Shown piece by piece: positions 14,608 through 23,835 of a DNA stretch of 28,427 nt. The notes under the pieces were generated by a model that was given only the letters and a program-made list of their open reading frames with translations, did not search any database and was not told the DNA's origin. The position numbers and the translations under genes are program-made. Each line of letters begins with the position of its first letter. Positions within the stretch are counted from its first letter, which is position 1. Origin of the DNA: Candidatus Bathyarchaeota archaeon (GTDB taxonomy: Archaea; Thermoproteota; Bathyarchaeia; Bathyarchaeales; Bathyarchaeaceae); assembly GCA_023136395.1 (NCBI GenBank), contig JAGLRI010000001.1:1-28427 (forward strand). The letters run 5' to 3'.

Positions 14608-14661
14608 TGTACAAGCCAAGCATCTTTCTATGTACAATAATGTACACATAAGATTTAATAT
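14608..14661 (+). promoter_or_regulatory. trpB2 promoter with TRP boxes
   Basis: TGTACA at 14608, 14631 and 14641; BRE-like CATAAGA 14647-14653; TATA TTTAATAT 14654-14661; a CGTACA variant follows at 14670. Confidence 0.8.
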
Positions 14662-14716: not shown

Positions 14717-16102
14717 GTGCCATCTAGAAAAATATTATTAGACGAAGAGGAAATGCCTAAACAATGGTACTGCATACTGCCTGATCTACCTAAACCACTA
14801 CCCCCAACGATAGAACCAGCAAAGAAGGCGCCGGGACCAGGAATCGTTCCCTTAATATTTCCTAAAGAGATCATTGCCCAAGAGTTTAGCAAAGACAGAT
14901 GGGTAGATATACCTGAAGAGGTAAGAGAAATATACCGGATCTGGAGACCTACACCATTATACCGGGCAGTTGGATTAGAAAAAGCTTTGAAGACTCCCGC
15001 TAAGATATATTACAAGTACGAAGGCACTAGCCCTTCCGGAAGTCATAAGCCAAATACCGCCGTTGCACAAGCTTATTACAACATGAAAGAGGGTAAAGAG
15101 CGTATAGCTACAGAAACGGGAGCAGGCCAATGGGGTTCAGCTATAGCCTTCGGTTGCATGACTTTCAAGCTCGATTGCACTGTATACATGGTTAGAGTAA
15201 GCTACGATCAGAAACCTTATAGAAGAGTAATGATGGAGCTTTGGGATGCTAAGGTGCATCCAAGCCCAAGCACAAAAACAGAAGCTGGCAGAAAAATTTT
15301 GAAAGAAGATCCCGAGAGCACTGGAAGCTTAGGAATAGCTATCAGCGAAGCCGTCGAGGATGCTCTTACTCATGAAGAAGCGAACTATGGTATAGGCAGT
15401 GTTTTCAACCATGTCCTCTTGCATCAAACCGTGGTTGGATTAGAAACCAAGAAGCAGCTTGAAAAAGTCGAAGACTATCCTGACGTAATAGTTGGGTGCA
15501 TTGGTGGAGGGAGCAGTTTCTCAGGTCTCTTCACGCCCTTTTATTATGATAAAGTTTCAGGAAAAGCGCCTAAGGATACCCGGTTTTTAGCTACTGAAGC
15601 TACGGCTTGTCCCTCTATCACTAAGGGAGAATATATGTTTGATCACGGTGACACAGCAAGAATTACCCCTTTGATCAAGATGCATACCTTAGGCCACGAC
15701 TTTATTCCACCACCAATTCATGCTGGAGGCTTACGTTACCATGGTATAGCCCCCATTTTATCGATGCTGGCACAAGAAAAGAAGATAGAAACGCGAGCGT
15801 ACGATCAAGTAGAGGTTTTCGATGCTGCCAGACTCTTTGCTCAAACTGAAGGGTTGGTGTCAGCTCCCGAGCCATCTCACGCCATTAAGGGTGCCATTGA
15901 CGAAGCACTAAGATGTAAGGAGACCGGGGAGGAAAAAACTATTCTTTTCATGCTTTGTGGTCATGGTCATTTTGATATGCAAGCTTTTGATGACTACCTT
16001 CAAGGTAAACTTTTACCATATGAGTATCCAGAGGAAGAAGTTCAGAAATCCATGAAAAGGTTGAGAGAACTGTATCCATGGATTGATACCCTACCTTACT
16101 AA
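14717..16102 (+). CDS. trpB2: Tryptophan synthase beta chain type 2 (TrpB2, stand-alone)
   Basis: 461 aa; [61 protein letters not shown]; GGTGA SD at 14706-14710. Confidence 0.96.
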
Positions 16103-16264
16103 CCACTATATTTATCACAGCTAAGATCATTCCATAAGGAGCTTCCAAAATCCTTAAACATTAATGAAAAACTTGTACATTTGCATGCATTATTATTCAA
16201 CTTCATTCATCATTAGAAAATTAAGATTGCCAAAAAGTACCATTATTTTCTTTTGACTAAAAAA

Positions 16265-16293
16265 TTTATATCTTGTTTGTACATAATGGTACA
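16265..16293 (+). promoter_or_regulatory. trpY promoter with TRP-box pair downstream of TATA
   Basis: TATA TTTATATC 16265-16272; TGTACA 16278-16283, N4 spacer, GGTACA 16288-16293; an extra TGTACA lies at 16174. Confidence 0.75.
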
Positions 16294-16306
16294 TATTTGT
16301 GATATT

Positions 16307-16810
16307 ATGTGGAACAAAGTGATGGAGTGCTTAAAGGGTTATCCGGAGCGCCTTTTAGTAGCTAGGGTACTCATAGAAAACGGTCTAAGTGTGAAAGAGG
16401 GTAAAATCTATTGTAATGATATTGAGCTTCCACCGGTCAGAATAGGTCGTGTTGCAAAGGTTGATAGAAGAACAGTAACTGAAACAATTAAAACCATCGA
16501 AAAAAAATCCGAGTTGAAAATTATTTTTAGGCATATAAAATCAGCTGGGCATTCGTTGAAAGAAGTTGCGAAATATTTTAACTTAGGTGTAGTGGAAATA
16601 ACTCCGGAAAATGCAAAAATGCCGGGGATTCTAGCAAAAACGGCTTCACTTATAGCTGAGAGGAATATAAGTATCCGACAAGCGATAGTGGATGATCCAG
16701 AACTTTCACCAGAACCAAGACTTACAGTGATTACTGAGACAAAAATTCCTGGGGAACTCATATCTGCTTTTTTAAAGATTGAGGGCGTTGCTAAGGTTTC
16801 AGTGTATTAG
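16307..16810 (+). CDS. trpY: Tryptophan-sensing transcription regulator TrpY (COG2150, HTH plus ACT)
   Basis: From ATG 16307: MW...GYP.R..VA..LIE.GL...GKIYC.D.E......R.A.VDRRTV; PGILA..A.LIA...ISIRQA..DDPEL...PRLT.ITET.IPG..I..FLKI.GV..VS.Y. The first 18 aa of the listed ORF (16253) are promoter sequence. Confidence 0.88.
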   Translation: MWNKVMECLKGYPERLLVARVLIENGLSVKEGKIYCNDIELPPVRIGRVAKVDRRTVTETIKTIEKKSELKIIFRHIKSAGHSLKEVAKYFNLGVVEITPENAKMPGILAKTASLIAERNISIRQAIVDDPELSPEPRLTVITETKIPGELISAFLKIEGVAKVSVY

Positions 16811-16849
16811 TCTAGATTTTTCATGTTAAATCTTTTTAATTTTAATAAA

Positions 16850-16880
16850 TGTACGTTTTTGTACACGTAAGCTTTAAATA
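16850..16880 (+). promoter_or_regulatory. trpE operon promoter with TRP-box pair
   Basis: TGTACG 16850-16855, N4 spacer, TGTACA 16860-16865, BRE-like CGTAAGC 16866-16872, TATA TTTAAATA 16873-16880. A T-rich tract precedes it after the trpY stop. Confidence 0.8.
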
Positions 16881-16927
16881 TGACGTGTGAGTTCATATTT
16901 TTCCTTCACCATCAAGAGGTATTGAGT

Positions 16928-16951
16928 ATGGGGTATTGTATTTGGCGATAA
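16928..16951 (+). CDS. Putative trp leader peptide MGYCIWR*
   Basis: ATG GGG TAT TGT ATT TGG CGA TAA with GAGGT SD at 16916-16920; ends 4 nt before the trpE TTG. Confidence 0.5.
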   Translation: MGYCIWR

Positions 16952-16955
16952 TGCG

Positions 16956-18350
16956 TTGAGCAAGCGATTTCAACAGAATAGCAATTTTCAACTGAAGTTT
17001 AAAAAATTACCCTTTTTGTATTCGCCTTCTGAGATCTTCTTAAGAATTTATAAGTGTTATGAACATGCTTACCTCCTTGAGTCAATAGAAGGTCCAAAAA
17101 AATTAGCTCAGTATTCGTTTATTGGATTTGCGCCTAAATTGAGGCTAAAGGTAAAAGATGGCGAAATAATACTCCAAGATATCAAACTAGACGAAGAAAT
17201 TAGGATAAAAAACGAAGACCCTCTTCATATAGCAAGGAAGATTCTAGGAAGAAGGTCTCCCATTGCGAGATTTAGATTTATTGGTGGTGCTGTAGGATAT
17301 ATTTCCTATGATGCAATACGATACTGGGAAAGGCTTCCTGATTTTACTGTTGATGCCTTGCGTTTTCCCGATATTGAGTTGGGCATATTTGATGATGGCG
17401 TTGTGTTCGATCATAGTAGAAGGGAGGTTTTCTATTATTATTGGAATGAAGATCGTTTCGATGAGCTGAATAAGTTATTAAAGGAACCTGTTGAATCTGA
17501 GGCGTTATACTTTACAAATCCCAAGGTAAACGTCTCGAAGGAAAGGTTTGAGGAATCAGTGCAGAGAGCTAAGGCATATATAGCATCTGGCGACATCTTT
17601 CAGGTTGTTCTCTCAAAAAGATACGAGTTTGTTATCAAGGGTGACTTGACGAGTTTCTATATGTCCCTCCGAAAGGTAAACCCCTCTCCCTATATGTATT
17701 TCTTAAAAATGGGTGACCGCCAAATCGTTGGGTCAAGCCCCGAAATGCTTTTTAGAGTAGATAATGGTTTTGTGGAGACTTTTCCCATTGCTGGTACAAG
17801 ACCATACGTAAAAAATCCCATTGAAAATGAGGCATTAAAAAAGGAGTTATTGTCAGATCCCAAGGAACGTGCTGAACACGTAATGCTTGTAGATTTAGCT
17901 AGAAACGATGTTGGTCGAGTCTCAGAATTTGGAAGCGTTTCTGTTCCCGAATTCATGAAAGTTCACCAATACAGCCACGTTCAACACATAGTATCAAGGG
18001 TAGTTGGTAAACTGAAGGGGGGGTGCGATTGCTTTGACGCATTGAGAGCTGTTTTTCCAGCAGGTACAGTTTCAGGAGCACCCAAAGTAAGGGCTATGGA
18101 GATCATCGAAGAATCTGAGCCTACAAAGAGAGGACCTTACGCGGGGGCTGTTGGCTACTTCTCCCATAATGGAAACGCAGACTTCGCCATTACCATAAGA
18201 ACCCTCGTTGCAAAAGGAAAAAAATGTTACATTCAGGTTGGAGGTGGTATAGTAGCTGACTCTGTTCCTGAGAGAGAGTGGTTTGAAACAGAGCATAAAG
18301 CTCGGGCTCTACTGAAAGCTCTAGAACTATGTGGAGAAAACCAACAGTGA
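16956..18350 (+). CDS. trpE: Anthranilate synthase component I
   Basis: 464 aa; LLES and NPSPYM (Trp feedback site), GDIFQVVLS, PIAGTR, KERAEHVMLVDLARND, FPAGTVSGAPK. The TTG start has no evident SD. Confidence 0.96.
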   Translation: MSKRFQQNSNFQLKFKKLPFLYSPSEIFLRIYKCYEHAYLLESIEGPKKLAQYSFIGFAPKLRLKVKDGEIILQDIKLDEEIRIKNEDPLHIARKILGRRSPIARFRFIGGAVGYISYDAIRYWERLPDFTVDALRFPDIELGIFDDGVVFDHSRREVFYYYWNEDRFDELNKLLKEPVESEALYFTNPKVNVSKERFEESVQRAKAYIASGDIFQVVLSKRYEFVIKGDLTSFYMSLRKVNPSPYMYFLKMGDRQIVGSSPEMLFRVDNGFVETFPIAGTRPYVKNPIENEALKKELLSDPKERAEHVMLVDLARNDVGRVSEFGSVSVPEFMKVHQYSHVQHIVSRVVGKLKGGCDCFDALRAVFPAGTVSGAPKVRAMEIIEESEPTKRGPYAGAVGYFSHNGNADFAITIRTLVAKGKKCYIQVGGGIVADSVPEREWFETEHKARALLKALELCGENQQ

Positions 18351-18928
18351 AGGTTCTTGTCATCGACAATTACGATTCGTTTGTTTATAATCTTGTTCAA
18401 TACATTGGAGAACAAGGGGGAATCCCTCTGGTCTACAGAAATGATAAACTAACCCTGAAACAAGCAGAGAATTTTAAACCAGACAGGATTGTTATATCTC
18501 CAGGTCCCGGTACACCAGAAGATGTCCGGTATTTTGGGATTTGCTCCGATATCCTACAACACCTAAGTTGTAAGATTCCAACCTTAGGCGTTTGCCTTGG
18601 TCACCAAGGAATAGTTTCAACCTTTGGGGGAAAAATAATACCCGCAAAGAGGCTGATGCACGGTAAAACAAGCTTAATAAAACATGATGCTCAAGGCGTC
18701 TTTAAAAGCTTGAAAAATCCTATCGTGGCTACTCGCTACCACTCTCTCGTTGGGGAAAGAACGTCAATGCCTTCATGCCTTAAAATAACTGCTGAGTCAC
18801 TCGACGATGGAGAAATCATGGGAGTTCGTCACATAGTATATCCAATTGAGGGGATCCAATTTCATCCCGAGTCGATTTTAACTGAGATGGGAAAGAAACT
18901 CATAAAGAATTTTCTTGAAAGGAGATGA
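18347..18928 (+). CDS. trpG: Anthranilate synthase component II (glutamine amidotransferase)
   Basis: IDNYDSF, ISPGPG, GVCLGHQ, RYHSL, QFHPES. The likely start is GTG 18347 overlapping the trpE stop (GTGA), with GGAG at 18333-18336. Confidence 0.95.
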   Translation: MKVLVIDNYDSFVYNLVQYIGEQGGIPLVYRNDKLTLKQAENFKPDRIVISPGPGTPEDVRYFGICSDILQHLSCKIPTLGVCLGHQGIVSTFGGKIIPAKRLMHGKTSLIKHDAQGVFKSLKNPIVATRYHSLVGERTSMPSCLKITAESLDDGEIMGVRHIVYPIEGIQFHPESILTEMGKKLIKNFLERR

Positions 18929-18934
18929 AGGAAG

Positions 18935-19996
18935 ATGATAAGGGAAGGCATACGAAAGCTGATTGCAGGTATGACCCTTGCGTATAATGAATCAAGAGAG
19001 ATAATGAACGAGATAATGTCTGGTAATGCAACGCAAGCACAAATTGGCGCATTCTTAACGGCCTTGAGAATGAATGGAGAAACGATCGATGAGATCTCTG
19101 CACTTGCTTCAGTAATGAAGGAATTTTGTTACCAAATACATCCTCAAGTAAATGGGCGTCTCGTAGATACTTGCGGAACAGGTGGAGATAAAATAAAAAC
19201 CTTCAACATCAGCACTACTGCTGCCTTCGTTATTGCTGGTGCCAAGGTGTCAGTGGCTAAGCACGGGAATCGATCAGTAACTAGCAAAAGTGGAAGCGCA
19301 GACGTTTTGGAGAAACTCGGTGTTAATCTCAACGCAACACCAAACGTTGTAGAAAGTAGCATCGAGGAGGTTGGAATTGGCTTCATGTTTGCCCCAACAT
19401 TTCATAAGGCTATGAAACATGTTATTGGACCAAGAAGAGAAATAGGAGTGAGAACCGTTTTTAATGTTCTTGGACCCTTGACGAATCCAGCGAACGCAAG
19501 CGCCCAATTATTAGGGGTTTATGATAGAGCATTACTAGAGCCTCTGGCAGGGGTATTAAAGAAACTTGGATGCGAAGAAGCCATGGTCGTGCATGGTCTA
19601 GATGGACTGGACGAAATTTCCACTATTGGTAAAACAGCTATCGCATGGCTAAAGGAGGAAGAAATTAGCTTATTAGAAGTAGTTCCTAAAGACTTTGGCA
19701 TCGAAAAGACAAGACTAGAAGACATCATGGGAACAACACCCGAAAAAAGTGCGGAAATAACATTCAAAATCTTGACTGATCAACACAAGAATGGAGACCC
19801 AAAGAGAGATATTGTATTAGCGAATGCGGCAGCAGGGATTCTACTAGGTGGAAAAGGTAGTGATTTCTGTTATAGCGTCGAATTAGCCTGTGAATCCATC
19901 AAAAGTGGGGCTGCATATAAAAAACTAAAAATGCTTATTGAAGTTGGTGGCGGTGATAAGGCGAGGCTCGAGGAGCTGGAAAATAAATATGGCTGA
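18935..19996 (+). CDS. trpD: Anthranilate phosphoribosyltransferase
   Basis: DTCGTGGD, FNIST, KHGNRS..SKSGSAD, RTVFNVLGPLTNP, GLDEIS. Confidence 0.96.
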   Translation: MIREGIRKLIAGMTLAYNESREIMNEIMSGNATQAQIGAFLTALRMNGETIDEISALASVMKEFCYQIHPQVNGRLVDTCGTGGDKIKTFNISTTAAFVIAGAKVSVAKHGNRSVTSKSGSADVLEKLGVNLNATPNVVESSIEEVGIGFMFAPTFHKAMKHVIGPRREIGVRTVFNVLGPLTNPANASAQLLGVYDRALLEPLAGVLKKLGCEEAMVVHGLDGLDEISTIGKTAIAWLKEEEISLLEVVPKDFGIEKTRLEDIMGTTPEKSAEITFKILTDQHKNGDPKRDIVLANAAAGILLGGKGSDFCYSVELACESIKSGAAYKKLKMLIEVGGGDKARLEELENKYG

Positions 19997-20768
19997 TTTT
20001 CTGGATGTCTTGGGACAAAAAGCACGGAAAAGGGTGAAAGAGGGTTATTATAAAGTCACAAAACAGATAATAGCTCCCACTAAAGGTCTAAAAGAGGCAG
20101 TTCTTGAGTGTAAAAACGCTCCCATAATTAGTGAAATCAAAGTTGCTTCACCAACAATGGGCGTTATCAGAAAAAAAATTGATGTAAATAAAGTTGCCAT
20201 AGCAATGGAAAAGGGTGGAGCAATTGGAATTTCGGTACTAACCGAGCCCAAACATTTCAAAGGATCAATAGATACTTTCATTAAAGTGAGGTCCCAAGTT
20301 GACCTTCCCCTCCTTATGAAAGACATTGTTGTAAACCGAACACAGATTGAGGCTGCAGCAAAAATGGGCGCAAATGCAATCCTTTTAATAGAGGCTCTCT
20401 TCAAACGTGGCTACTGTGATTGCGATGTTCATCGAATGATTGCTGAAGCTCATTCACAAAAACTTGAAGTTTTATTGGAGATTCTTACCGAAGAAGAGTT
20501 CATATCAGCTATAAAAACTGAAGCCGATTTAATCGGTATTAACAATCGTGATTTAAGAACACTTGAAGTAGATCTTGAAGTAACAAGGAGAATCTTGACA
20601 AAAAATTGCATTAATGAAAAGTTAATTGTAAGCGAAAGTGGCATTAAGAGTTCTGCTGACGTCCGCTTTCTCCACGAATGTGGTGCCCACGCTTTCTTAG
20701 TTGGGTCCTCTATCATGAGGAGTAGTAACATCCAAAAAATGGTCAAGGAGCTAGTGTTGGCTCTATGA
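19989..20768 (+). CDS. trpC: Indole-3-glycerol phosphate synthase
   Basis: ISEIKVASP, SVLTEPKHF.GS, LMKD, GINNRDL, SESGI, LVGSSIM. The likely start is ATG 19989 (MADF), overlapping the end of trpD. Confidence 0.95.
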   Translation: MADFLDVLGQKARKRVKEGYYKVTKQIIAPTKGLKEAVLECKNAPIISEIKVASPTMGVIRKKIDVNKVAIAMEKGGAIGISVLTEPKHFKGSIDTFIKVRSQVDLPLLMKDIVVNRTQIEAAAKMGANAILLIEALFKRGYCDCDVHRMIAEAHSQKLEVLLEILTEEEFISAIKTEADLIGINNRDLRTLEVDLEVTRRILTKNCINEKLIVSESGIKSSADVRFLHECGAHAFLVGSSIMRSSNIQKMVKELVLAL

Positions 20769-21415
20769 GTAGAGTAAGAGTGAAAATCTGCGGAATAACA
20801 CGAAAAAAAGATTTAGCAGCGGTTATTGAAGCTGGGGCTGATGCCGTGGGATTCGTTATTGGTGTACCCTCATCACCCAGAAACTTGACGCTCGATGAGG
20901 CAAGAAAAATGATAAAAAATACAATTTTTATCAAGACCGTTGCGGTAACAGTTCCTAATAATCTTGACAAATTAAAAAAGATCCATGAGAATCTAAGGCC
21001 AGATATTCTTCAAATTCACGGTGATAGATTATCTGACTCTATCATTCGAGAAGAGTTACCTAAAACACGTTTAATAAGAGCTGTTCAAGTAACGTCCAAT
21101 GGAAGTATTAAGACTGTTGTTGATGCAGCAAATAGCTTTGACGCTATTCTTTTAGACTCTTATGTTTTGGGTAAGTATGGTGGAACAGGCAAAACTCACG
21201 ACTGGCAACTGGACAAATGCGTTAGAGAAGCCATTCAACCGAAACCGCTAATTCTTGCTGGGGGTTTAAATCCTACCAACATTAAAGACGCCATACGCAT
21301 CGTCCAGCCATATGCTGTTGATGTTTCTAGTGGTGTCGAATCACATCCGGGAATTAAAGACCCAAAAAAAATTTACAAATTTATAAAAAATGTTAAGGAA
21401 GCGGAAATATGTTAA
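20765..21415 (+). CDS. trpF: Phosphoribosylanthranilate isomerase
   Basis: KICGIT, ADAVGFV, QIHG, LLDS, GGTGK..DW, LAGGL.P.N, DVSSGVE; ATGA overlap with trpC. Confidence 0.95.
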
Positions 21416-22608
21416 AATTTAGTCAATATCCAATTGAGGGAAAATATGGAAAATATGGTGGACAATTTGTTCCAGAAACTTTAATGGTTGCCATTAAAGA
21501 ACTGGAAGAAGCCTATAAAAAATCAAAAGTAGATCAAGATTTTCAAAAGAAACTTAAATATTACCTCTCGGAATACGCTGGAAGACCTACGCCATTATAT
21601 TATGCTGAAAATTTAACTAAAAAGATAGGAGGCGCGAAGATCTACCTTAAACGTGAAGATCTCGCACATGGAGGAGCCCACAAGATAAACAACACCATAG
21701 GACAAGCCTTACTTGCAAAAAAGATGGGAAAGAAAAGAGTTATTGCAGAAACGGGTGCCGGACAACACGGGGTCGCTACAGCCATAGCCTGCGCTACTCT
21801 TGGGTTGAAAGCCGAGATCTACATGGGTTCTAAAGACATGAAACGACAAAAGCTCAATGTTTTCAGGATGAAACTTCTTGGCGCAGAGATTCATCAGGTA
21901 GAGTCCGGATCCAAAACTTTAAAAGACGCTATTAATGAAGCCTTGAGGGATTGGGCTACCAACGTTCAGACAACCTATTACCTTATTGGGTCCGTTGTCG
22001 GTCCTCACCCATATCCAATTATTGTTAGAGACCTCCAAAGTGTAATTGGTAACGAAATTATGAAACAGATAATGCTAAAGGAGGAACAACTACCTAGCGC
22101 CTTAATCGCTTGCGTAGGAGGTGGAAGCAACGCCATAGGAACTTTCTACCCATTTCTGGATTATCCATTAGTCAAGATGTATGGTGTTGAAGCAGCCGGT
22201 TTAGGACTCGATTCTAGTAAGCACGCTGCATCACTTTGCGTAGGAGCGGAAGGCGTCTTTCACGGCATGCTAACATATGTACTTCAAGACGAGCATGGAC
22301 AAATACAAACTACACATAGCATCTCTGCAGGACTTGATTATCCAGGAGTCGGACCAGAACATTCCTTCCTCAAGATGAGGGAAAGAGCTCGATACGCTAC
22401 TGCTACGGATGAAGAAGCAGTAAATGCCTTCCTTGAATTATCAAAGAATGAGGGAATAGTCCCAGCGTTGGAACCCGCACATGCCTTGGCTTATGCCATT
22501 AAACTTGCTCATACGATGGGAAGAGACAAAATAATCGTAGTGACCTTGTCTGGAAGGGGTGACAAGGATGCAGAAGTGGTAGCGAAACATCTAGGGGTGA
22601 AGATATGA
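21409..22608 (+). CDS. trpB: Tryptophan synthase beta chain type 1
   Basis: [64 protein letters not shown]. Confidence 0.97.
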
Positions 22609-23426
22609 GAGAAATAGAAAAAATGTTTCTAACTCTGAGGAGACGGAAGGAAGGAGCGCTCATAGCCTATGTCACGGGAGGGGATCCCAAACCAGAATAC
22701 ACCCCTAAAATCGCTGAAGCTTTAATTAAAGGAGGAGCAGACATTATTGAGCTCGGAATCCCCTTTTCAGATCCAATCGCTGATGGCCCAACTATTCAAG
22801 CAGCAACAGTACGAGCGCTGAAGGCAAAAACCACACCGAGGACCGTGTTAAAAATTATTAAGAAAATAAAGGAGAACCATAGTGTACCCATCATAATCCT
22901 CACTTACTACAATCCGATTTACAGGATGGGACTTGAGAATTTCTTCAGATTAGCAAGTAGATACGAACTTGATGGTTTAATCGTTCCGGACCTACCCATA
23001 GAGGAAGCCTACGACTACAAAAAAGTTGCAGAGGAATACGATATAGATACAATCTTCCTAACAGCCCCCTCAACATCACAAAAAAGACTTGAGAAAATAA
23101 TTAGCTACACCTCGGGTTTTCTCTATCTTGTATCCATCTTTGGTGTGACTGGAGCTAGAGAAAAAATTCAAGATCTAACCATCAAACTTATTAAAAAAAC
23201 TCTTCCACTAACAACTGGAAAAATTCCTTTAGCCGTAGGTTTTGGGCTTTCAAAACCAGAACACATAAAAACCGTTATACTAAACGGAGCAGATGGAGCC
23301 ATAGTAGGAAGCAGCTTCGTTAAAATCATAGAAGAAAATCTAGAGAATAGCAAAAAAATGCTTAATAAAATCGAAAATCACACAAAAAAGTTAAAAAAAG
23401 CAACCGTGAAAGAGTGTTCTAATTAA
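22605..23426 (+). CDS. trpA: Tryptophan synthase alpha chain
   Basis: [41 protein letters not shown]; ATGA overlap with trpB. Confidence 0.97.
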
Positions 23427-23433
23427 AATAATC

Positions 23434-23835
23434 CTAAAAACTATTGCTTGCAAGTTTAACTAAGGTATTTGTGTTTAAGACTGCTGGAAGCGCTCTGATT
23501 TTATCGACCTTTTTATTTAGCTCATTTATTGTATAAGCCTGGATTAGGGCAGCAACATCATAATCACCTGATACTTCAAAAATTTTTTCTGAAACCTCTT
23601 TCATTTTCAAGGCTACATTTCTAGTTTCATTGGGATCCGTTTTCACCAGAATTATTCCCTCCACTTCAACTTTTGTTTCAATAGTGAACTTAGTTATTAT
23701 CCCCTGCTCAAGTAACTTCTTTACTCTCATCCTCACTGCTCCTTCAGTTAAGCCAATAATTTCCGCCATTTTCACGTATTTTGTTCGAGAGTCCCGCTTT
23801 AATATTCCAAGGATTTTTTCATCTATTTCGTCCAT
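23434..23835 (-). CDS. lysM: Lrp/AsnC family regulator, LysM-like
   Basis: 133 aa; D.ID.KIL..L..D.R.....A...G..E.AVR.R...L...G.I..FTI HTH, and RAM domain (EVSGDYD...I.....N..VD.IR). Divergent from the lysine operon. The symbol rests on overall resemblance plus context. Confidence 0.75.
   Translation of the reverse strand: MDEIDEKILGILKRDSRTKYVKMAEIIGLTEGAVRMRVKKLLEQGIITKFTIETKVEVEGIILVKTDPNETRNVALKMKEVSEKIFEVSGDYDVAALIQAYTINELNKKVDKIRALPAVLNTNTLVKLASNSF

Follow-up and report, generated by a model that had tools for sequence, protein, structure and literature searches.

The window described here is a 28,427-nt stretch of DNA from Candidatus Bathyarchaeota archaeon (GenBank assembly GCA_023136395.1, contig JAGLRI010000001.1) that carries a tryptophan (Trp) biosynthesis operon, and the element in question is the 5′ end of its trpE gene. 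The source organism belongs to Bathyarchaeia, is uncultured, and originates from cold-seep or marine sediment; it is represented by a metagenome-assembled genome (MAG) of 253 contigs that is 81% complete. The long open reading frame (ORF) of trpE lies in the +1 frame relative to an ATG at position 16928, and a mechanical ORF list starts the gene at TTG 16956. In the frame of the ATG (the 0 frame), positions 16928-16951 read ATG GGG TAT TGT ATT TGG CGA TAA and encode MGYCIWR followed by a stop. A first-pass annotation of the window had described this ORF, the Shine-Dalgarno (SD) sequence GAGGT in front of it, and the out-of-frame position of trpE, and all of these are confirmed. It had also taken MGYCIWR to be a separate leader peptide; comparison with related loci favors a +1 ribosomal frameshift at the Trp codon instead, which points to ATG 16928 as the true trpE start and to the supposed leader as the N-terminus of TrpE. 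The region contains the following elements, all on the forward strand.

16916-16920 (+): initiation SD sequence GAGGT, serving ATG 16928; coincides with a peak of anti-SD complementarity at -17..-14
16928-16930 (+): ATG, putative trpE start codon of the 0 frame; start position kept in relatives
16930-16936 (+): internal SD-like sequence GGGGTAT (family consensus RGGNAUH), presumed frameshift stimulator
16937-16939 (+): TGT, which would occupy the E site when the proposed shift occurs (family pattern NRY)
16940-16943 (+): slippery A-UU-U, made up of the P-site ATT and the next T; proposed re-pairing from AUU to UUU
16943-16945 (+): 0-frame A-site codon TGG (Trp), presumed "hungry" sensor codon
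16944-18350 (+): trpE body in the +1 frame (GGC GAT AAT GCG TTG ...), matched by TIGR01820 and Pfam
16949-16951 (+): 0-frame stop TAA, the predicted end for non-shifted ribosomes (MGYCIWR)

GAGGT is separated from ATG 16928 by a gap of 7 nt. Its register spacing is 8 nt here and 7-10 nt in relatives, and the genome-wide mode is 7-9 nt. The proposed shift heptamer, AUU-UGG-C, spans positions 16940-16946, and the predicted TrpE product joins MGYCI to GDNALSKRF... for a total of about 473 residues. The trpE gene is a full-length match to the TIGR01820 family (TrpE-arch; 534.9 bits, cut-off 512.05) and contains the Pfam domains Anth_synt_I_N (PF04715) and Chorismate_bind (PF00425).

An out-of-frame start could also result from a G run misassembled by one base or from a trpE pseudogene, and the fragmented MAG and the run of four G at the site (16930-16933) would suit such an artefact. 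The site (16928-16951) is covered without an indel by contigs assembled in four runs, each from a different study; these are assemblies and not raw reads, and outside the site they show substitutions relative to the window and one indel, at 16837. The four independent assemblies thus agree on the site. The same offset occurs in 131 loci, complete chromosomes included, and the spot of the G run itself varies among them (AGGG, AGGA, GGGT), while the trpE body in the window is intact and scores above the TIGR01820 cut-off. Together, the contigs and the comparative data exclude the scenario, raised by the first-pass annotation, in which only three G are present and ATG 16928 opens trpE directly. 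An artefact or pseudogene is extremely improbable.

The trpE 5′ regions of the window's relatives, of 80 named genome records, and of 60 further genomes across the class yielded 145 distinct loci. A common design, in which a start codon is followed by exactly four codons, NUU, and UGG and the trpE frame is +1, is present in 131 of them; the raw scripted count was 133 loci, from which two false assignments were removed. In order, the design loci carry a TRP box, a TATA box, an SD sequence, the start codon, four codons, NUU, and UGG. The start codon (ATG at 115 loci, GTG at 14, TTG at 4) stands exactly four codons before NUU at 129 of the 133 loci in the raw count; at locus L139, it has moved two codons upstream and the 0 frame is retained. 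In the same 133 loci, the P-site codon is GTT (59), CTT (49), ATT (19), or TTT (6), and the A site holds TGG at 130; the remaining three are the two false assignments and locus L125, which has TAG. In the cultured relative Ca. Bathyarchaeum tardum M17C-01, the corresponding sequence is ATG AGG GAT AAT GTT TGG C.

Within the design loci, the TTTGG core is invariant (L125 has UAG for UGG) and the flanks vary freely on both sides. The TTT that corresponds to 16941-16943 is found at 131/131 design loci and is never TTC; among Phe codons in trpE bodies, 47% are TTT. The 0-frame stop lies 0 to 27 codons after the site and varies among relatives. The design extends over most of the Bathyarchaeia families sampled and five Jordarchaeia/Freyarchaeia records, including a closed chromosome, and is absent from one family (f24). 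TrpE identity among the compared loci falls to about 57%. Loci without the design (L028, L056, L092, the f24 loci, and L124) begin with an ordinary in-frame start and carry no remnant of the motif. Since the same out-of-frame start and Trp codon recur in 131 of 145 loci, the arrangement is far beyond chance, and it is virtually certain that the conserved design is real.

Three loci labelled Deferrimicrobium, Limnocylindrales, and Sulfotelmatobacter (L037, L055, and L090) carry a Bathyarchaeia-type trpE with the frameshift module in MAGs labelled bacterial. These loci are probably mis-binned.

Many of the design loci offer trpE no start of its own. From the in-frame stop upstream to the conserved domain, the trpE frame contains no ATG, GTG, or TTG at 65/131 loci and no ATG at 91/131, and at 67 loci it is closed by a TGA that overlaps the start codon (A-TGA-GG). 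Because an intact enzyme gene is conserved over such an evolutionary distance, the missing start is not accidental. These counts bear on the idea that MGYCIWR is a separate leader and that TrpE has an initiation event of its own, at TTG 16956 here and at different or non-canonical codons elsewhere, with UGG serving to unmask the start or to allow reinitiation. In favor of that idea, TAA 16949-16951 has TTG 16956 within 4 nt and overlaps an ATG-CGT-TGA minigene, and the codon directly before TTT is ATG or GTG at 28/131 loci. However, 65 of the 131 loci lack a canonical start in the trpE frame, and TTG 16956, the start favored in the first-pass annotation, is not conserved. The variable distance of the 0-frame stop leaves no fixed geometry for termination and reinitiation, no conserved structure is present, and the invariant TTT and the NUU rule would go unexplained. 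In addition, trpE genes with ordinary starts (L028, L056, L092, and L124) lack the motif altogether. Independent initiation of TrpE is improbable. A relay through the TAA-ATG-CGT-TGA-TTG minigene was rejected as well, since it is specific to the window and would lack a target start codon in half of the relatives.

Stop codons delimit the point at which the frame changes. In five species of one genus (L121, L122, L137, L138, and L139), the codon immediately 5′ of TTT in the trpE frame is TAG or TAA; the same holds for four Korarchaeum-type contigs, which brings the total to nine genomes. In these genomes, the trpE frame is therefore not readable any earlier. Locus L125 reads CUU-UAG-C, with a stop in the start-codon frame where UGG normally stands, so the 0 frame is not readable after NUU. 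The two constraints overlap exactly at NUU-U, which argues for a +1 move with NUU in the P site. A slip onto UUU explains why any NUU can occupy the P site but the following T is never C. On these comparative grounds, a +1 ribosomal frameshift at NUU-UGG is highly likely.

Two loci depart from this arrangement. At L026 (JAOZFL010000121.1), TGG is followed by one additional G, so that the ATG frame (MRNNIW...) continues into TrpE. At L081 (JAVZOA010000025.1), the GTG frame runs straight into TrpE and TGC replaces TGG. In each case, the switch may truly have been lost, or the assembly may contain an indel. These direct fusions, along with the persistence of a 0-frame start whose identity or position changes, count in favor of the frameshift.

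The segment after the start codon resembles a second SD sequence. The 3′ tail of 16S rRNA, read from a complete relative, is GGAUCACCUCCU, and the bases that follow the start codon (RGGNAUH; GGUGAUC in one genus) are complementary to it. In a sliding duplex calculation, the initiation SD gives one of two peaks, and the other, at +2/+3, is stronger. The mean for the internal element is -8.1 kcal/mol, compared with -2.6 kcal/mol for windows inside trpE and -7.3 kcal/mol for initiation SDs, and at 78% of loci it falls below the 5th percentile of the background; in this window, it is weaker (-6.1 kcal/mol). At 88/109 loci, it precedes the NUU codon by 6 nt (register), closer by 1-3 nt than an SD at an initiation site. 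In bacterial prfB, the +1 shift is known to be stimulated by an SD-like sequence positioned too close to the P site, and by analogy the internal element probably promotes a forward slip in the same way. The E-site codon conforms to NRY at 113/131 loci, and a contribution of this codon is suggested by the E-site effect in prfB.

RNA structure gives no corresponding signal. The window leader folds no better than shuffled sequences (z -0.32) and contains no terminator-like site, in agreement with the earlier remark that a terminator/antiterminator pair is missing. The 60 nt after the site are A-rich and G-poor and show no structure signal across the 131 loci (mean z -0.1). An attenuator or masking RNA structure was rejected on the basis of these results. 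The GTTGA/TCAAC stem (16955-16959 / 16970-16974), which had been proposed to mask the trpE start, does exist in the sequence but is not conserved.

The anatomy of the site is conserved, the frame change maps to NUU-U, and the bases after the start codon are complementary to the anti-SD. The mechanism proposed from these features is one in which the slip would occur at this point, the SD-like element would stimulate it, and its rate would respond to tryptophan. Ribosomes would bind the SD, initiate at ATG 16928, and read MGYCI in the 0 frame, which would bring peptidyl-tRNA-Ile onto AUU (16940-16942) as UGG (16943-16945) enters the A site. If Trp-tRNA is plentiful, UGG would be decoded and translation would stop two codons later at TAA, yielding MGYCIWR and no TrpE. 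If Trp-tRNA is scarce, the A site would stay empty, the P-site tRNA would slip from AUU to UUU, and GGC would be read next. The whole trpE body would then be translated and, by coupling, probably trpG onward. The SD-like sequence just after the start codon would pair with the 16S tail 6 nt before the slip codon and thereby promote the slip, while transcription would be gated separately by TrpY at the TRP boxes.

The codon left unread for the slip is the only Trp codon, and it stands in the first gene of the Trp pathway, which suggests that the site acts as a Trp sensor. The complete model, a +1 frameshift at trpE that doubles as a sensor of charged tRNA-Trp, is considered likely. A translational Trp sensor layered on TrpY, as the first-pass annotation had envisaged, thus provides the best reading of the locus; the match to NF053754 confirms TrpY, and TRP boxes are located at 16850-16865.

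A constitutive +1 frameshift without sensing would also account for the frame change. In that case, a fixed rate would set a low level of TrpE or would be a frozen accident, and UGG would be present only because the slip needs a U and the +1 codon is GGN. GGN is also the +1 codon of the yeast Ty1 site, and one locus (L125) has UAG instead of UGG. However, UGG occupies 130 of the 133 sites in the scripted count, a slow A-site codon is a known trigger of slippage, and the decoding of UGG depends on the end product of the pathway. The device is also confined to Trp genes (trpE and, among the matches listed from the pattern scan described below, trpB2 in Korarchaeum-type contigs), with nothing else in the genome. 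A constitutive shift is therefore regarded as unlikely, although less so than independent initiation.

Strict, loose, and generic NUU-U scans found the motif nowhere in this genome besides trpE. A look-alike on contig C13 was rejected because it lies on the antisense strand of a membrane-protein-like ORF. A candidate frameshift site in trpS (G000:C210:5546-6700, L135) was also rejected; the gene has an ordinary start, and its SD-like GAGGA and out-of-frame CTT-TGG are a by-product of the conserved internal motif RRGLIFGHR. A pattern scan of 185,579 species genomes, one per prokaryotic species, returned at least 120 matching stretches. Among the matches listed, the right ORF architecture occurs only at trpE (at least 34) or at a leader coupled to trpB2 (at least 4). 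Other listed matches with a long +1 ORF represent motifs inside proteins, which for the bacterial ones include WGINFG within long ORFs; the remaining bacterial matches among those listed lack the ORF architecture.

The trpB2 module consists of an SD followed by ATG GGG GAT YTA GTT TGG CTC and TGA or TAA, and its 0 frame encodes MGDLVWL and a stop. The contigs that carry it are labelled Korarchaeum, Thermoproteota, Nitrososphaerota, and uncultured archaeon. The four loci are as follows.

L178, about 2075 (-): site in the trpB2 leader
L207, about 7340 (+): site in the trpB2 leader
L238, about 6784 (+): site in the trpB2 leader
L264, about 371 (+): site in the trpB2 leader

In these leaders, the +1 frame runs for 31-36 codons and ends in RTG-C-TGA, which overlaps the trpB2 start. 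This layout suggests a frameshift-dependent translational coupling to trpB2 instead of a fusion. That two Trp genes would be wired in two different ways argues for UGG as a functional input and against a by-product. It is reasonably likely, with somewhat less assurance than for the trpE sensor, that the SD-like element, the 6-nt spacing, and NUU-UGG-N form a portable archaeal amino-acid-sensing module that makes the synthesis of Trp proteins conditional on a shortage of charged tRNA-Trp. With the same assurance, this module would be fused to trpE in Bathyarchaeia and some Asgard archaea and coupled to trpB2 in Korarchaeum-type genomes.

Several points weigh against the frameshift sensor. The support for the model is wholly comparative, and UGG could in part be a by-product of the need for U in the slip and for GGN as the +1 codon. 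Genome G275 has two trpE copies: L124 (on contig C34) has an ordinary in-frame ATG, and L125 (on C40) has CUU-UAG-C, which is exactly the prfB layout. Given the second, ordinary copy, L125 could be a decaying gene. The L026 and L081 loci each rest on a single MAG, and TTG 16956 is a conceivable in-frame start in this window. The internal element, at 6 nt, is closer than initiation SDs by a modest margin only, and ordinary starts with a 6-nt spacing also exist. Finally, variation at motif positions 5-13 has a period of three bases in phase with the trpE frame (G-[IV]-[AVMT]-F-G). The variable positions between the start codon and TTT, namely 7, 10, and 13, are third positions of that frame, and such a periodicity is expected if the trpE frame is translated from right after the ATG. 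It is tentatively attributed here to the SD-like element combined with the NRY preference of the E-site codon.

The periodicity is the best argument for a shift, or an out-of-frame A-site binding, immediately after the start codon (AUG-R-GGN), in which case TrpE would begin M-G-I-V-F-G and the 0-frame Trp codon would be read only by non-shifting ribosomes. It fits the trpE frame at positions 7, 10, 13, and 19, with the conservative pattern G-[IVMAT]-[AVMT]-F-G. Against an early shift, the nine genomes with a stop directly before TTT have that stop in the trpE frame at positions 11-13. The TTT is never TTC and UGG is conserved, a G-I-x-F-G N-terminus is missing from the TrpE proteins that have ordinary starts, and the initiator tRNA cannot re-pair on UGR. 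An early shift is even less probable than independent initiation, and the slip at NUU-UGG is preferred.

The bacterial prfB gene has the frameshift site CUU-UGA-C, preceded by the SD-like sequence AGGGGG. As proposed for trpE, the ribosome enters in one frame and finishes in the +1 frame, and both sites are near the 5′ end. Both place NUU and a following U at the P site (AUU-U in the window, NUU-U at 131/131 loci), with the tRNA re-pairing on UUU, a step that is proposed for trpE. Both have a slow A-site codon whose decoding is tied to the product of the pathway itself, an internal SD-like sequence that is closer to the P site than at initiation, and a full product that needs both frames, as indicated for the trpE loci as a group by the 65/131 without an in-frame start and the nine genomes with a stop before TTT; the window's own locus has TTG 16956 in the trpE frame. 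The two systems differ at the A site, where trpE has the sense codon UGG, read by a tRNA, and prfB has a stop read by a release factor. The prfB system senses a translation factor, whereas trpE would sense amino acid supply through Trp-tRNA and not TrpE itself. Further differences of trpE from prfB are its archaeal host, a shift at codon 6 with an SD-like element that abuts the start codon, and a spacer of 6 nt versus 3 nt.

The yeast Ty1 element shifts by +1 at the heptamer CUU-AGG-C, which contains a hungry AGG codon. Like the proposed trpE site, it has NUU in the P site, a slow xGG codon in the A site, and GGC after the slip, and its rate is set by how much of one tRNA is available. In Ty1, a constitutively rare tRNA-Arg fixes the Gag:Pol ratio, whereas the limiter in trpE would be charged tRNA-Trp, tying the rate to what its own operon produces. 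PMC5009743 reviews the prfB and Ty1 shifts. In trpL attenuation, as in the model for trpE, the speed of the ribosome at Trp codons in a short 5′ ORF reports on charged tRNA-Trp and determines how strongly trpE and the genes behind it are expressed. Unlike trpL, trpE has no terminator/antiterminator RNA and one Trp codon in place of a tandem pair. Its output would be a change of reading frame and not transcription read-through, with the short ORF forming part of TrpE. The structural gene downstream of trpL has its own start, whereas half of the trpE loci have none.

In Methanothermobacter thermautotrophicus, TrpY represses trpEGCFBAD and trpB2. The arrangement resembles that in the window, with a TrpY-family gene beside trpE and TGTAC-N-GTACA boxes before trpE, trpB2, and trpY. 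TrpY in that organism acts on transcription only, and the trpE frameshift would be an additional, translational layer. Antizyme (OAZ) is regulated by a metabolite-responsive +1 frameshift that feeds back on its own pathway, which parallels the model for trpE. The OAZ shift takes place at a stop codon, has a downstream pseudoknot, and is stimulated by the metabolite, whereas the trpE shift would be stimulated by the lack of one and has no downstream structure (PMC5009743, PMC8211752).

A comprehensive 2016 review of frameshifting does not mention trpE or anthranilate synthase, and its archaeal cases are limited to haloviral cases, magnesium chelatase, and Sulfolobus (PMC5009743). A 2021 review of archaeal recoding lists one demonstrated programmed frameshift, a -1 shift in fucA1, and mentions neither tryptophan nor anthranilate synthase (PMC8211752). 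A literature search of limited coverage found no description of a frameshift in archaeal trpE or at a Trp codon. The same search also covered frameshifting in Bathyarchaeia and hungry codons in connection with tryptophan biosynthesis and turned up nothing relevant. To our knowledge, little has been described on how amino-acid supply is sensed during translation in archaea, and leader-peptide attenuation, T-boxes, and TRAP are bacterial.

If confirmed, the trpE site would, as far as the literature search goes, set two precedents: no cellular +1 programmed frameshift would have been shown in Archaea before it, and hungry-codon frameshifting would for the first time be seen in nature as the feedback sensor of a biosynthetic operon. 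It would represent an archaeal answer to bacterial attenuation. A +1 shift at a Trp codon with an empty A site would be a simple sensor free of RNA structure, and it would give the classic "hungry codon" phenomenon a physiological role. The site also matters for annotation. In well over 100 Bathyarchaeia genomes, gene callers assign trpE a wrong start (TTG 16956 in this window) or may flag it as broken, and metabolic reconstructions of this lineage, which is abundant in sediments worldwide, are affected.

The remainder of the operon and its control region contain the following features.

14631-14646: TGTAC-N-GTACA pair before trpB2, upstream of the TATA-like sequence TTTAATATA
14717-16102: trpB2, one of the genes surrounding trpE
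16253-16810 (+): trpY, TrpY-family transcription regulator (NF053754, 192.6 bits, cut-off 180; residues 20-182 matched)
16278-16293: TGTAC-N-GTACA pair in the 5′ end of the listed trpY ORF
16850-16865 (+): TRP-box pair TGTAC-N6-GTACA, presumed TrpY operator upstream of the trpE promoter; same place in relatives
16873-16880 (+): TATA box TTTAAATA of the trpE promoter; TTTAAATA or a similar sequence kept in relatives
18329-23426 (+): trpG, trpD, trpC, trpF, trpB, and trpA (Pfam GATase, Glycos_transf_3, IGPS, PRAI, PALP, and Trp_syntA)

The window contains three TRP-box pairs, against 0.09 expected by chance. The function of TRP boxes as operators is known from Methanothermobacter TrpY, and by analogy the pairs here are presumed to be TrpY operators. 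With an adjacent TrpY-family gene and TRP boxes (predicted sites) in the promoter, the locus has the features of a TrpY-controlled trp operon. The family match of TrpY begins only at residue 20, and one TRP-box pair lies inside the listed 5′ end of the gene, so the true trpY start is probably downstream of 16293 and the gene is probably autoregulated. Transcription of trpE is inferred to start near 16903, based on the usual archaeal distance from TATA box to transcript start. The gene ends from trpG through trpD, trpC, trpF, and trpB to trpA mostly overlap, which suggests that these genes are probably translationally coupled to trpE. The proteins of the operon are poor in Trp, as the first-pass annotation had noted, with 8/2185 residues (0.37%) compared with 1.16% in long ORFs of the genome; its count of 6 in about 2,150 residues was slightly different.

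Short contigs of other organisms in two sediment runs (X5 and X11) match only the stretch with the TRP box and TATA box (16848-16881). They diverge on both sides of it, which indicates a promoter module common to co-occurring archaea. At the other end of the operon, a gene for an AsnC/Lrp-family regulator (HTH_AsnC-type and AsnC_trans_reg domains) occupies 23434-23835 on the reverse strand and is convergent to the end of trpA.

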